Positions 2,947 through 62,255 of a stretch of 64,000 nucleotides of DNA are shown here, piece after piece. The stretch is from positions 102,753 to 166,752 of the forward strand of contig OY970126.1 in the NCBI GenBank assembly GCA_963705915.1. Direction: 5' to 3'. Every line of letters starts with the position of its first letter. The stretch's first letter is position 1. This DNA is from an uncultured bacterium (GTDB taxonomy: Bacteria; Patescibacteriota; Minisyncoccia; UBA6257; 2-01-FULL-56-20). A program made the position numbers and the translations under genes. The notes below the pieces were generated by a model that worked only from the letters and a program-made list of their open reading frames with translations, did not search any database and was not told where the DNA came from.

Positions 2947-4954
2947 ATGCCACAACTCGAACTTGTTTCAACCAATAAGCCCGCGGGGGACCAGCCGAAA
3001 GCGATCGCATCGCTTGTTTCGGGTTTGGAAAAGGGCATGCGCGACCAGACGCTGCTCGGCGTGACCGGCTCCGGAAAAACATTCACCATCGCGAATGTGA
3101 TCGCAGAGATTCCAGAAGCCGACGCTCGTGATCGCGCACAACAAGACGCTTGCCGCACAGCTCTGCAATGAGTTCCGCGAACTGTTCCCGAAAAACTCCG
3201 TCAACTATTTTGTCTCGTACTACGACTACTATCAGCCGGAGGCGTATATCCCGTCGAGCGATACCTATATCGACAAGGAGGCGCTGATCAACGATGAGAT
3301 CGACAAGCTGCGCCACGCGGCGACGACCGCGCTTCTCACGCGGCGCGATGTGATCATCGTGGCGTCGGTTTCGTGCATCTACGGTTTGGGCGCGCCGGAG
3401 GTGTATCGCGAAGAACATTTTCCATTTTAAAGTGGGCGACAAGATTGAGCGAAAGGAATTCTCGCGCAAACTTGTCGAGCTGCAATTCAGCCGCACGAAC
3501 AGCGGACCTCAAGCGTGGCACGTATCGCCTGCGCGGCGAGAATTGGGAGATCATGCCCGCGGACCGCGAGATCATCTACAACATTGAGGTTCTGAGCGGA
3601 ATCATCCGTCGCGATCTATGAAGTCGATCCGGTGATAGGATTCCAGCCGGGCAAGACGCCGCCGATCCCGGACATCATCTTTGCTCCGGCAAAACATTTC
3701 ATCACGGAAGCGCCGGAGCGCGAGCGGGCGATCGAAGAGATTCAAGAAGAATTGAAGGAACAGCTCGCAAAGTTTGATAAGGAGAAAAAATTTTTGGAAG
3801 CCGAGCGACTTGAACGCCGGACCAAGTTTGATCTCGCCATGATGCGCGAAGTGGGCTACTGCCACGGCATTGAAAACTATTCGCGCCATCTTTCCGGCCG
3901 CGCCGCGGGCGAGCCGCCGGCAACGCTTCTCGATTATTTCCCGCACACGGAAGATCGGCAAGCCGGATTTTCTCACGGTGATCGACGAATCGCACATGAC
4001 CGTGCCGCAGTTGCAGGGCATGTTCAACGGCGACGCGGCGCGCAAGAAGACGCTCGTTGAATATGGTTTTCGGCTGCCGTCAGCAATCGACAACCGGCCG
4101 TTGCGATTTGAGGAATTCGAAGCGCGGATCGGCCAGACGATTTATACATCCGCAACGCCGGGTCCGTACGAGCGCAAGGAGAGTGAGGCGCCGCGAGGGC
4201 AAACGGTCGAGCAGATCATCCGCCCGACCGGTCTCGTCGATCCAAAGATCACGATGCGCGCCGGCGCGTGGCCAGGTGGAAGATCTCATCCCGCGCATCG
4301 AGGAGCGCGTGGCAAAGAACGAGCGCGTGCTTGTGACGACGCTTACCAAGCGGATGGCGGAAGATCTCGCGCTCGTATCTCGAAGAGAAAAAAATAAAAG
4401 TGAACTATCTGCATAGCGATGTGAAGACGCTCGATCGTATCAAGATCCTGACCGAACTCCGCAAGGGGAAGATTGAAGTGCTGGTCGGCGTGAATCTTTT
4501 GCGCGAAGGGCTTGACCTGCCGGAGGTCTCGCTCGTCGCCATTTTGGATGCGGACAAAGAAGGATTTTTGCGGAGCGAAGTTTCGCTTATGCAGACGATC
4601 GGCCGCGCCGCGCGCAACGCGCAGGGCGAAGTGCTGATGTACGCCGATAATATCACGGGCTCCATCGAGCGCGCCGTAAAAGAAACCGACCGCCGCCGCA
4701 AGATCCAGGTTGCCTATAACAAAGAACACGGCATCACGCCCACGACGATCATCAAAAAGATTTCCGATATTTTGCCTAATGTGGACGAGATATTGAAGCT
4801 TGAGACGAAGCCGATTCCCAAGTCAAAGACCGCTCTGCAGAAGCTGATCGCCGAGAAGCAGCGCGAGATGCGCGAAGCGGCGAAAGCGCTCGACTTTGAA
4901 ATGGCTGCCATTTTGCGGGATGAAGTTAAAGAGTTGATGAAGCGACAAAAATAA
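2947..4954 (+). pseudogene. uvrB: uvrB (excinuclease ABC subunit B) disrupted by >=7 frameshifts
   Basis: UvrB-like sequence is recoverable only by hopping between frames: 2947-3110 ([17 protein letters not shown]), 3110-3430 ([15 protein letters not shown]...[10 protein letters not shown]...GLGAPEVY), 3431-3500 (KVGDKIERKEFSRKLVELQFSRTN), 3500-3620 (LKRGTYRLRGENWEIMPADREIIYNIE), 3620-3955 (EVDPVIG...FAPAKHFIT...[26 protein letters not shown]), 3955-4255 ([11 protein letters not shown]...[14 protein letters not shown]...YTSATPG), 4255-4375 ([27 protein letters not shown]), 4375-4954 (KVNYLHSD...[27 protein letters not shown]...UVR domain). Neighbouring long genes (uvrA, secA, dnaE) are intact. 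Confidence 0.85.
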
Positions 4955-5283: not shown

Positions 5284-7062
5284 ATGGACCTCCTTTACTA
5301 TTACCTCAAGAAATATAAAAAGACACTTTCTCTCACGCTCGTCCTTGCGACGATCAACACCGCGTTTTCGCTCGTCGATCCGCAGGTGTTTCGTCTTATC
5401 ATCGACAACTATATCTCGCAGATCGGTTCGATCTCGCAAAGCGACTTTTTGCGCGGCGTAGGGCTTCTATTGCTGGCATCGGTAACCGCCGCATTCATAT
5501 CGCGCGTGGCAAAAAATTTCCAGCAATATTATGAGAACGTTGCGACCCAGCGGGTTGGCACCGACATGTATGCGGATAGCGTCGCACATTCTTTTTCGCT
5601 GCCCTACAGCATTTTTGAGGACCAGCGTTCCGGCGAGTTGCTCCAAAAACTGCAGAAGGCACGTATTGATACCCAGCAGCTCATGATCAGTTTTGTGGAT
5701 ATCATTTTCGTTTCGCTCGTCGGCATCGTGCTCGTTGTCCTTTACGCATTTTATGTCCACTGGCTCATAGGCCTTTTGTATCTCCTCATCATCCCAACGC
5801 TTGGCACGGTTACTTTTTTCTTAGGACGCAAAATTAAAACGATTCAGAAAACGATCGTCGTTGAATCCGCGAACCTTGCCGGATCAACAACCGAAACGCT
5901 CCGCAACGTCGAACTCGTGAAGAGTCTCGGCCTTGAAGACCAGGAGACGAAGCGCTTGAACGATGTGAATAACAAAGTGCTCGGCCTCGAACTCTCGAAG
6001 TTCAAAGTGATCCGTGGCTTGAGCTTTGGGCAAGGGACCGTCGTAAACGCGATGCGCGCGGCGATTCTTTTTGCGATGCTGTGGCTCATCTTCACGGACG
6101 CGATAACGCTTGGCGAGTTTCTCACGCTTTGGTTTTACTCCTTCTATATATTTTCGCCGCTCGGCGACATCAGTACCGTCGCTGCGCAATATCAAGAGGC
6201 GAAAGGCAGTTTGGAAAAATTGCAGGAAATTTTGGCGATTCCATCGGAAGTGAAGCCGACGAATGCCGTGCAGATCGACACATTGAAAACCATCGATTTT
6301 AAAAAAGTTTCCTTCCAATACCAGGAAGGCAATACTCCCGCCGTGAACGATATTTCATTCACCATCAAGAGCGGCGAGACCGTCGCGTTCGCGGGTTATT
6401 CCGGTTCGGGCAAGACGACACTCATTAAATTGCTCGTCGGACTCTATAGGCCTAATAAAGGCTCAATCGTTTTGAATGGGGTGGATGGGGCGAACGTCGA
6501 TTACGATGCGTTGCGGCGGAAAATCGGCTACGTTTCGCAGGAAACCCAGCTTTTTGCCGGAACGCTGCGCGAAAATTTGTTGTTTGTGAATCCTTCCGCG
6601 ACCGATGACGATTGCTGGGAGGCACTTGAAAGCGCTTCGGTGACCGACATCGCCCATCGCGGCGGCAAAGGACTCGATACGCGCATCGGCGAAGGCGGCA
6701 TAAAAATTTCCGGCGGCGAACGCCAGCGCCTCGCGATCGCGCGCGCGCTCGTCCGCAAGCCCGACCTCATTATCTTTGACGAAGCAACGTCGAGCCTTGA
6801 CTCGATCACAGAACGATCAATCACGGACACCATCAAAGATATCGCGCGTTCGCGTCCTGATCTTATCACCGTCATGATTGCGCACCGGCTTTCCACGATC
6901 TCCCACGCCGATATAATTTATGTTTTGCAAAAAGGAAACATCATTGAGCGTGGCTCACACGCAGAGCTTTTGCGCAACCGCGACGGGCTCTACTCGGCGC
7001 TGTGGAAAGAGCAAAGCGGTGCCGGGGAAGCTTGGGAAGCCTCGCCGGTTTTTGCGGGATAG
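5284..7062 (+). CDS. ABC transporter, fused permease/ATP-binding (type I exporter, MsbA-like)
   Basis: 6-TM N-terminal domain; Walker A GYSGSGKTT, signature ISGGERQRLAIARAL, Walker B LIIFDEATSSLD. Confidence 0.9.
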   Translation: MDLLYYYLKKYKKTLSLTLVLATINTAFSLVDPQVFRLIIDNYISQIGSISQSDFLRGVGLLLLASVTAAFISRVAKNFQQYYENVATQRVGTDMYADSVAHSFSLPYSIFEDQRSGELLQKLQKARIDTQQLMISFVDIIFVSLVGIVLVVLYAFYVHWLIGLLYLLIIPTLGTVTFFLGRKIKTIQKTIVVESANLAGSTTETLRNVELVKSLGLEDQETKRLNDVNNKVLGLELSKFKVIRGLSFGQGTVVNAMRAAILFAMLWLIFTDAITLGEFLTLWFYSFYIFSPLGDISTVAAQYQEAKGSLEKLQEILAIPSEVKPTNAVQIDTLKTIDFKKVSFQYQEGNTPAVNDISFTIKSGETVAFAGYSGSGKTTLIKLLVGLYRPNKGSIVLNGVDGANVDYDALRRKIGYVSQETQLFAGTLRENLLFVNPSATDDDCWEALESASVTDIAHRGGKGLDTRIGEGGIKISGGERQRLAIARALVRKPDLIIFDEATSSLDSITERSITDTIKDIARSRPDLITVMIAHRLSTISHADIIYVLQKGNIIERGSHAELLRNRDGLYSALWKEQSGAGEAWEASPVFAG

Positions 7063-61075: not shown

Positions 61076-61660
61076 ATGATAGAAAGGTCCGTACTTTCAG
61101 GCTTGTATAAAGATCGTCAAAAATCAATGCAAGAAATTGCAGATTTTTTAGGTTGCTCGTTGCACCAAGTCGTTTTTTGGATGAAAAAATATGGTATCAA
61201 GGCTCGAAGTCGTAGCGAGGCCATCTATATAAAAAATAACCCCAACGGCGATCCGTTCAGCGTCGATCTTTCAAGCGATCCAGAAAAAATGAAACTCCTT
61301 GGATTAGGTATCGGACTTTATTGGGGTGAAGGAACAAAAGCAAGCAAGGGATCAATTCGGCTAGGTAACACAGATCCGAAACTTATTAAAACTTTTATAG
61401 AGTTTCTTGAGAAGATATTTCATATCAAAAGAGATAAGCTAAAGTTTGGATTGCAGTTATTTACTGACATCACTATTAACGAAGCGCTGGACTTTTGGAC
61501 CAAAAAACTTAATATACAAAGGAGCCAAATCAACAAGCCAGTAATTACAAAGTCTGGTTCGTTGGGTACTTATCGAAAGAAGAGCCAATACGGCGTACTG
61601 ACGGTTATGTATCACAACAAAAAGCTCAGAGACATTCTGATGGGTTTATTGCCGATGTAG
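61076..61660 (+). CDS. HTH + LAGLIDADG-like homing-endonuclease-family protein
   Basis: N-terminal HTH (MQEIADFLGCSLHQVVFWMKKYGIK); LLGLGIGLYWGEGTKASKGSIRLGNTD...LIKTFIEFLEKIF aligns to single-motif LAGLIDADG (helix + GxG + beta) proteins; stop codon overlaps 5' end of intron-containing tRNA. Confidence 0.45.
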   Translation: MIERSVLSGLYKDRQKSMQEIADFLGCSLHQVVFWMKKYGIKARSRSEAIYIKNNPNGDPFSVDLSSDPEKMKLLGLGIGLYWGEGTKASKGSIRLGNTDPKLIKTFIEFLEKIFHIKRDKLKFGLQLFTDITINEALDFWTKKLNIQRSQINKPVITKSGSLGTYRKKSQYGVLTVMYHNKKLRDILMGLLPM

Positions 61661-61917
61661 CTCAGTTGGTAGAGCAACTCCATGGTAGACCGAGAGGTCG
61701 TGCCCACGATTAAGGAAACTTATTCGTGAATCCCGAATTACGGTCAAAGACCTTCGCGGGTTAAGACCGTGGCGAGTGCATATTCGCCCGAACGACTGAC
61801 AAGGGGCGCTACGCTGCAAACAGTATGCGCAAGATACAGTCTAATCCTCATATAAGATGTTCGAAGTTGAGGTATCAATGAAGGAGTAGGTCGCCGGTTC
61901 AAATCCGGCCATCGGCT
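61651..61917 (+). tRNA. tRNA-Thr (anticodon GGT) interrupted by a ~194-nt group I intron after position 36
   Basis: Exon 1 61651-61686 (acceptor gccgatg, D arm gctc-agttggta-gagc, ac stem actcc, loop atggt); exon 2 61881-61917 (aa, ggagt, aggtc, T arm gccgg-ttcaaat-ccggc, catcggc, t). Exons assemble into a perfect 73-nt cloverleaf. Confidence 0.7.
61687..61880 (+). ncRNA. group I intron (small, Azoarcus/IC3-like) in tRNA anticodon loop
   Basis: 5' exon ends in U, intron ends in G; internal segments resemble group I core (cggtcaaagacc; gcgggttaag; gactgac...acagtc P7-like pairing; caagatacagtctaa). Confidence 0.55.
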
Positions 61918-61958
61918 CAAGGTTGATTTTTTCTGCCGGGCATAGTACGATATTCCCC

Positions 61959-62138
61959 ATGGCTAAAGTAAAACGAGCCGATCGGTTGATCACTCTGCGC
62001 TGCTCCGTTTGCAAGCGGCGTAATTACTATACGAACAAAAACAAGAAAGTTGTTGAGCGTAAAATTGAATTGCAAAAGTTCTGCAACTGGTGCCGTGCAA
62101 AAACCCTCCACAAAGAGGCTCGCATCACCGGAAAGTAA
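61959..62138 (+). CDS. rpmG: 50S ribosomal protein L33
   Basis: MAKVKRADRLITLRCSVCKRRNYYTNKNKKVVERKIELQKFCNWCRAKTLHKEARI (Zn-ribbon C..C...C..C). Confidence 0.9.
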   Translation: MAKVKRADRLITLRCSVCKRRNYYTNKNKKVVERKIELQKFCNWCRAKTLHKEARITGK

Positions 62139-62181: not shown

Positions 62182-62255
62182 GGGAGCTTAGTTAAATGGT
62201 ATAACTGCGGTCTCCAAAACCGCCGTCGGAGGTCCGATTCCTCCAGCTCCCGCCA
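62182..62255 (+). tRNA. tRNA-Trp (anticodon CCA), CCA end encoded
   Basis: gggagct/agctccc acceptor, D stem gtta/taac, anticodon stem gcggt/accgc with loop ctccaaa, T arm ggagg-tccgatt-cctcc. Confidence 0.85.

Follow-up and report, generated by a model that had tools for sequence, protein, structure and literature searches.

The DNA analyzed here is a stretch of 64,000 nucleotides (nt), called the window below, from an uncultured bacterium of the Patescibacteriota (GTDB lineage Minisyncoccia; UBA6257; 2-01-FULL-56-20; assembly GCA_963705915.1, contig OY970126.1, positions 102,753 to 166,752 of the forward strand). It carries a gene for tRNA-Thr(GGU) that is split by a 194-nt insert between tRNA positions 36 and 37, while a free-standing open reading frame (ORF) for an HTH-LAGLIDADG protein lies directly upstream and has its stop codon within the 5′ part of the tRNA gene. 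With a probability that we put at about 0.88, the insert is a compact group I-type intron of the known Patescibacteria tRNA-Thr "divergent group I intron" family. The features of the locus are collected in Table 1.

The split tRNA-Thr(GGU) gene

The two exons, GCCGATGTAGCTCAGTTGGTAGAGCAACTCCATGGT (36 nt) and AAGGAGTAGGTCGCCGGTTCAAATCCGGCCATCGGCT (37 nt), join to form a 73-nt tRNA-Thr(GGU) that folds at minimum energy into a perfect cloverleaf (−31.7 kcal/mol, z = −4.1), with the anticodon GGU in the loop AUGGUAA; the fold of the whole pre-tRNA has a z of −4.8. The gene at 61651-61917 is seen neither by ARAGORN in its default mode nor by the Rfam tRNA model, and default ARAGORN finds no second tRNA-Thr(GGU) elsewhere within the window. 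When run in its intron-aware mode, ARAGORN returns tRNA-Thr(ggt) with a 194-nt intron at 36-37, written as "atggt-Intron-aagga". The exon boundaries are exact because the joined exons match, at 73 of 73 positions, the uninterrupted tRNA-Thr(GGU) gene in L222, a close relative that shares 85% identity with the window in its L33 protein and whose gene neighborhood has the same order (dnaE / tRNA-Thr(UGU) / tRNA-Thr(GGU) / rpmG / tRNA-Trp). An exonic U (61686) directly precedes the intron, and the last intron base is a G (61880). These results bear out what a sequence-only reading of the stretch had proposed at identical coordinates, namely a group I intron of about 194 nt that follows position 36 of tRNA-Thr(GGU), begins after an exonic U, ends in G and separates two half-tRNA segments able to form a perfect 73-nt cloverleaf; an intron-aware tRNA search, of the kind that it had suggested as a check, gives the same gene and the same intron.

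Table 1. Coordinates of the split tRNA gene, the helices of its intron and the upstream reading frame (positions in the window)
Feature	Position	Strand	Evidence or remark
Free-standing HTH-LAGLIDADG ORF, 194 aa	61076-61660		177 aa in another annotation, which uses a later start
5′ exon of tRNA-Thr(GGU), tRNA positions 1-36, 3′ end = anticodon GGU	61651-61686	+	ARAGORN, cloverleaf fold, L222 identity
Group I-type intron, 194 nt, Patescibacteria tRNA-Thr(GGU) 36/37 "divergent" class (probable)	61687-61880	+	alignment, covariation, covariance model R1, ARAGORN
P1: G34 G35 U36 (61684-61686) with guide GCC (61702-61704)	61684-61704	+	splice-site wobble U61686-G61702
P1 extension hairpin GACC-GAGA-GGUC	61687-61701	+	covaries; 73% paired, missing in some relatives
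P2 hairpin, L2 = GAAA (61715-61718)	61705-61728	+	9/9 pairs with compensatory changes; L2 type tracks P8 type
P3 5′ strand CCC, partner of 61803-61805	61732-61734	+	98.8% paired; C-G to U-A double changes, 3/3 pairs
P4; J4/5 AAA	61740-61745 with 61765-61770; 61746-61748	+	P4 100% paired, nearly invariant
P5; J5/4 AA	61749-61752 with 61759-61762; 61763-61764	+	91% paired, 3/4 pairs covary
P6 hairpin GGCGA/UCGCC	61771-61788	+	93.9% paired; 4/5 pairs covary
P7 5′ strand A[C]GACUG, bulged C61793; preceded by J6/7 (61789-61791)	61792-61798	+	100% paired, invariant
P3 3′ strand GGG, after J7/3 ACAA (61799-61802)	61803-61805	+	covariation
P8, asymmetric internal loop GCGC-UAC...UAU-GCGC, like an 11-nt GAAA-tetraloop receptor	61806-61830	+	4/4 outer pairs covary
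J8/7 AAGAUA; P7 3′ strand CAGUCU	61831-61836; 61837-61842	+	invariant or nearly invariant columns
P9.0	61844-61845 with 61878-61879	+	97.7% paired; types AU/GC/UA/CG, 51/49 and 53/44 splits
P9, UAUAA/GAAGU internal loop	61846-61850 with 61868-61872 (61844-61879 including P9.0)	+	98.5% paired, 5/5 covary
Terminal guanosine (omega G), 3′ splice site	61880	+	invariant column G204; placed independently by ARAGORN and intron-less L222
3′ exon of tRNA-Thr(GGU), positions 37-73 including discriminator U	61881-61917	+	ARAGORN, cloverleaf fold, L222 identity

An intron family with a covarying P1-P9 fold

The search for relatives of the insert covered a single genome for each GTDB species and used a pattern tied to the tRNA exons (TAGAGC-N7-TGGT ... 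GAA-N6-RGTC-N4-GTTCRAWTC), which within the insert constrains only four bases (AGTC, in the 3′ strand of P7) and the terminal G, and which found no chance match in 100 shuffles of the window. The scan recovered at least 119 species-representative loci with inserts at 36/37 of tRNA-Thr(GGU). Inserts of the window's type, 177-220 nt in length, are present in at least 109 species-level genomes (108 distinct sequences), mostly Patescibacteria. Their hosts are Wolfe-, Jorgensen-, Kaiser-, Yanofsky-, Taylor-, Nomura-, Vogel-, Lipton-, Uhr-, Buchanan-, Doudna-, Andersen- and Moraniibacteria, Saccharibacteria, Peribacteria, Gracilibacteria and Minisyncoccia, with a few bins labelled otherwise. The window copy aligns with 108 other family members, one of them in a complete genome of Candidatus (Ca.) Wolfebacteria (CP011209.1, L022), and the core is highly conserved. 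The named closest homologs of the window's L33 and of its upstream ORF come from Ca. Paceibacterota / Patescibacteria.

A group I P1-P9 fold was drawn by hand on the window copy and tested on a MAFFT alignment of 109 sequences (A1) that had not been fitted to the structure. Standard pairs make up 94.0% of cells, compared with 29-44% when the partners are slid by 1-3 columns, while the covariation score is 0.443 as opposed to at most 0.105 with slid partners, and 39 of 56 pairs show changes on both sides where the slid versions reach 21-31 of 53-56. All helices that vary are supported, with covarying pairs in P2 (9/9), P3 (3/3), P5 (3/4), P6 (4/5), P8 (4/4), P9.0 (2/2), P9 (5/5) and the anticodon stem (4/5). 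In P1, the U-G wobble at the splice site is kept in 106 of the 109 sequences and the G-C pairs in 107-109 of them. The P1-P9 fold, the absence of which the sequence-only reading had listed among the things that would speak against it, is thus present, and the core-like segments that it had quoted are real, falling in J4/5-P5, the 3′ strand of P4, P7 and J8/7 with the 3′ strand of P7. A competing helix from the minimum-energy fold of the single sequence (61729-61737 with 61753-61762), which would replace P3, P4 and P5, was rejected on the same alignment, where it is 64.9% paired compared with 64.7% in shuffled data and shows no excess of double changes.

The invariant or nearly invariant columns of the alignment (A70, A71, C113-A115, G118-G122 and A156-C165) fall in junctions J4/5, J6/7 and J8/7 and in the bulged P7. 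Conserved junctions and a bulged P7 beside a G-C pair are what is expected of a group I intron, and they probably function as in that class. The G61794-C61841 pair in P7 would be the guanosine-binding pair, by analogy with what we take to be its counterpart, G264-C311 of Tetrahymena.

A further signal comes from the relation between L2 and P8. The GAAA form of L2 goes with a P8 that has an asymmetric receptor-like loop (GC-UAA/UAC...UAUGC) in 56 of 62 sequences, while 38 of the 39 sequences with another GNRA loop in L2 (GCAA, GUAA, GCGA, GUGA and similar) have a plain, continuous P8; kinship means that the events behind these counts are not independent, and both states recur in several named lineages. 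The window copy combines a GAAA L2 with a receptor-like P8. A coupled tetraloop and receptor is a classical pattern of group I introns.

How this structure relates to accepted group I introns was examined with a covariance model, R1, built from A1, which includes 17 tRNA exon nucleotides and gives rough E-values. R1 scores the window copy, which is part of its seed, at 204 bits and finds no second intron copy within the window. It matches introns that the Rfam model Intron_gpI (RF00028) recognizes, with E from 1e-12 to 1e-3. Among these are IC3-like introns in tRNA-Thr genes (19-50 bits, partly from shared tRNA exon bases) and phage introns on the IMG/VR contigs L001 and L004 (10-30 bits), where no tRNA exons are present and the match is therefore due to the intron core alone. 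A pattern made from the window's P7, J7/3 and J8/7 segments alone retrieved eight viral loci, seven of which resemble group I cores.

The class itself has been reported before. Table 1 of Nakagawa et al. (2026; PMC13011429) gives three complete Patescibacteria genomes with introns at 36/37 of tRNA-Thr(GGU), and the Patescibacteria "divergent group I introns", a term credited to Castelle et al. (2018), are described as missed by RF00028 and found by tFind (PMC13011429) with its model gpI_bact_tRNA (bioRxiv 10.1101/2020.01.27.920355, via PMC13011429). The window intron shares with this class the host tRNA, the site, a similar size and silence to RF00028, and differs in nothing substantive; it is a further example of an already reported class. 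The sequence-only reading had called the host and position uncommon, which does not hold in this phylum: 36/37 is a classical site, well characterized for tRNA-Arg (PMC13011429), the same paper tabulates the Thr class, and such inserts occur in at least 119 species-representative genomes here. To this class the present analysis adds a covariation-tested P1-P9 map, the L2-P8 coupling, a breadth of at least 109 genomes, and presence and absence among close relatives.

Several points weigh against the assignment to group I. Rfam Intron_gpI gives no match at its gathering score over the window and remains silent on the intron even at E ≤ 10 (on 61500-62100), and it recognizes none of the seven window-type relatives tested. 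P4 and P7 are invariant and so uninformative for covariation, and four P7 bases and the terminal G are fixed in the relatives by the search pattern. None of 500 shuffles reached any of the observed measures of pairing or covariation; the sequences being related, this control gives no probability, and the slid control is the fairer one. P3 has 3 base pairs (bp), P5 has 3-4 bp and L9 is not GNRA. The splicing assays of PMC13011429 cover Asn and Asp introns only, and none is published for the Thr class. The lack of a match to a group I covariance model was what the sequence-only reading had itself named as refuting, and the question was therefore settled comparatively: for Rfam the lack of a match is formally true, but the class is known to escape RF00028, which makes this an invalid refutation, and it was rejected as such on the comparative analysis and the literature.

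The upstream reading frame and the possible mobility of the intron

Close relatives of the window were defined by their L33 protein, and nine lineages are informative. Five of them carry the intron (the window, P0130, P0134, P0143 and P0150), and in four the gene is uninterrupted and its exon sequence is the same (P0121, P0126, P0129 and P0137). With so patchy a distribution over these nine lineages, gain or loss of the intron must be recent and must have happened repeatedly. L33 proteins that are 80-93% identical to that of the window accompany different intron states, with tRNA exons that are identical or 1-6 bases apart; compared with 61651-61917 of the window, loci L208, L209, L210 and L222 lack the intron and L214, L220, L226 and L228 carry it. 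The interval between dnaE and rpmG is a hot spot of gene turnover, and its contents vary by lineage (NUDIX, Vut_1, methyltransferases, epimerase).

The ORF upstream of the tRNA gene has its TAG stop at tRNA positions 8-10, with the conserved C-terminus LLPM* encoded by the acceptor stem. Its product has a LAGLIDADG fold whose motif helix ends with the conserved acidic residue, and the gene lies neither in the intron nor in an intein. One explanation of the patchiness is "collaborative homing", in which the intron and the adjoining LAGLIDADG gene would move as a single unit: the nuclease would cut an uninterrupted tRNA-Thr(GGU) gene near 36/37 and repair would copy the intron into the cut gene. 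Very close relatives with identical exons differ in whether they carry either element, and in some loci remnants of the ORF are left in its place. The palindromic DNA of the anticodon stem-loop, whose center is 1-2 nt from the insertion site, would also suit a LAGLIDADG protein with a single domain, presumably a homodimer. However, no statistical association of intron and ORF is seen. Among intron-anchored genome loci, a full-length ORF lies directly upstream on the same strand in 39, only remnants are left in 8, and the ORF is absent from 48 with at least 650 nt upstream. ORF-anchored metagenome loci with enough downstream DNA have a tRNA-Thr(GGU) at the end of the ORF in 68 of 68 cases, with the intron in 38 (56%) and without it in 30, compared with the intron in about 4 of 8 ORF-lacking lineages near the window. 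Among the window's close relatives, lineages with and without the ORF carry the intron at about the same frequency. Taken over the 68 metagenome loci and the L33-anchored relatives, the intron is present in about 50% of cases with or without the ORF, and a homing linkage between the two is not supported. Intact ORFs stand beside uninterrupted tRNAs, nine of which have the same CCATGGTAAGG core as intron-bearing alleles, and ORF distances sorted by intron state (II 0.41, NN 0.43, IN 0.43) are largely intermixed. The ORF family follows tRNA genes, not the intron.

A rule that ORF-bearing genomes never have an uninterrupted gene with the ACTCC...GGAGT stem (0/30) was considered and dropped, as 9 of the 30 share the CCATGGTAAGG core. 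Anticodon stems TTTCC and TTCCC occur in both intron states, and the ACTCC stem is the state of the window's clade.

A paralog of the ORF, about 30-34% identical, roughly 226-230 amino acids long and with a weak HTH_23 match, is found after rpmG in some relatives, where it shares 10-14 nt with the 5′ end of an intron-less tRNA-Trp(CCA) (L209 2732-3412 with tRNA-Trp 3399-3470; L226 2723-3415 with tRNA-Trp 3406-3477; also L227 and L208); no paralog ORF precedes the window's own tRNA-Trp (62182-62255). ORFs that terminate within a tRNA gene are therefore not confined to tRNA-Thr, and a paralog that abuts an intron-less tRNA also speaks against collaborative homing. Free-standing homing endonucleases beside intron-bearing genes are known, F-CphI at the cyanophage psbA gene being an example. 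The likeness is that a nuclease-fold gene lies outside but adjoining the interrupted gene, with both patchy, while the difference is that here no co-occurrence signal is seen and the ORF family tracks the tRNA gene. A search of the accessible literature found no description of a tRNA-abutting HTH-LAGLIDADG gene family.

On balance, we regard collaborative homing as unlikely. The same doubt applies to its fuller form, in which the ORF at 61076-61660 would be an active homing endonuclease that targets the palindromic anticodon stem-loop DNA, with the intron as passenger and immunity and the nuclease gene not yet inside it. If true, it would explain how the intron comes and goes among near-identical relatives, and it would contradict the published view of these tRNA introns as essentially immobile for want of a nuclease gene.

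Splicing, subgroup placement and significance

By analogy with established group I chemistry, splicing of the group I-type intron may proceed as follows. In the folded precursor, anticodon bases G34, G35 and U36 would pair with the intron's GCC guide to form P1, with the U61686-G61702 wobble at the splice site, while the anticodon stem ACUCC/GGAGU would hold the exons together. A free guanosine bound at the P7 pair G61794-C61841 would attack after U61686, after which the terminal G61880, placed by P9.0, would take the same guanosine site. Ligation of U36 to A37 would then restore the loop AUGGUAA. The P3-P8 core would be braced by the GAAA loop of L2, docked on the receptor-like loop of P8. 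We infer that the RNA is catalytic and that it acts independently of protein.

The last of these points has its own competitor, in which the fold is that of a group I intron but splicing in the cell depends on a protein, the adjacent LAGLIDADG protein being a candidate helper acting as a maturase. Some organellar group I introns are known to have maturases of the LAGLIDADG type, and a LAGLIDADG-fold gene does lie directly upstream. The core of the intron is minimal as well: with short P3 and P5 helices and a non-GNRA L9, the ribozyme is pared down to an unusual degree and may depend on high Mg2+ or on a helper. The family is among the smallest natural group I architectures. However, the distribution of the ORF fits a helper poorly, since it is not nearby in the 48 intron-bearing loci noted above, is reduced to remnants in 8 more and is missing from the recovered loci of four intron-bearing close lineages, while the LAGLIDADG family adjoins an intron-less tRNA-Thr in 30 of 68 loci. 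Dependence on a protein helper is, in our view, quite improbable.

The subgroup is the next point to be weighed. The sequence-only reading had described the intron as Azoarcus-like, which would make it a canonical IC3 tRNA intron of the Azoarcus/Anabaena type. Reference examples of this subgroup lie in Azoarcus tRNA-Ile CAU, which we take to be interrupted at 36/37 as well, in Agrobacterium tRNA-Arg CCU (36/37) and in cyanobacterial tRNA-Leu UAA (34/35). Part of the description stands: the window intron has in common with IC3 an anticodon-loop site, a 3-bp P1 formed with the anticodon, a GAAA L2 coupled with a receptor in P8, neither P2.1 nor P5abc, and a total of about 200 nt. The rest does not. 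In Azoarcus, a GNRA L9 docks on P5 and P3 has about 6 bp, whereas P3 of the window family has 3 covarying pairs, with the next position belonging to P8, and P9 has a UAUAA/GAAR internal loop instead of a GNRA-capped hairpin.

The scan also provides a direct comparison at the same tRNA and exact site. Ten loci in metagenome-assembled genomes of alphaproteobacteria, SAR116, Rhodobacterales and Rickettsiales (L009, L016, L028, L029, L039, L070, L080, L106, L115 and L124) have IC3-like introns at 36/37 of tRNA-Thr(GGU). These form a separate lineage, of which RF00028 recognizes 8 of 10, as opposed to 0 of 7 in the window's family and not the window copy either; J8/7 reads AAGAUAC in the window family and AAGGGAU in these introns. 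Their scores of 19-50 bits with R1 could be read in favor of an IC3 origin, although part of each score comes from the shared exon bases. The P7 and J8/7 segments of the window intron match phage-type introns instead, and in the published phylogeny the Thr introns form a long branch within the IA clade, with no Patescibacteria tRNA intron assigned to IC (PMC13011429). An IC3 assignment is thus very hard to sustain. Two intron lineages, one Azoarcus-like and one of the Patescibacteria type, occupy the single 36/37 site of tRNA-Thr(GGU).

The phage introns have P7, J7/3 and J8/7 segments nearly as in the window (AACGACUR-A-AAGG ... AAGAUAYAGUC), but they interrupt protein-coding genes and are mostly longer, about 230-430 nt as matched by RF00028. 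One viral contig (L003, IMGVR_UViG_3300015613_000310) carries a 194-nt relative of the window intron at 5926-6119 inside a phage ORF; this relative scores 82 bits with R1 and is silent in Rfam. Without the intron, the ORF reads through in frame and gives a transglycosylase-like sequence. This suggests that the window's intron family is also present in phage protein-coding genes. Another contig (L001, IMGVR_UViG_3300034096_001425; the same sequence is in L006-L008) has an unusually dense array of group I introns, with 14 Intron_gpI matches above gathering score on one strand over about 9 kb, one every 300-450 nt.

That the tRNA is dead and the insert a decaying relic that is never removed is scarcely credible: standard annotation tools do miss the gene, but its exons are 100% identical to the functional-looking ortholog in L222, the RNA fold is under selection, as the compensatory changes in at least 109 genomes show, and there is no other tRNA-Thr(GGU) within the window.

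Elsewhere in the window, a called tRNA-Leu(tag) on the minus strand (52604-52677) is only 74 nt long and has no long variable arm. A C-A mismatch closes its anticodon stem and position 37 is a C; drawn another way, it has the 9-nt loop CUUUAGCAA. Such a gene is no ordinary tRNA-Leu.

For genome annotation, the consequence is that default tRNA finders and Rfam miss the split tRNA-Thr(GGU), so that such a genome would be scored as lacking an essential tRNA. For the intron family, a structure map based on comparison and a clear tertiary signal between L2 and P8 are now available; if self-splicing is demonstrated, and only then, the family is a reasonable minimal-ribozyme candidate. The patchiness of the intron among relatives with identical exons, together with the tRNA-abutting LAGLIDADG family, bears on the question whether Patescibacteria tRNA introns are mobile.

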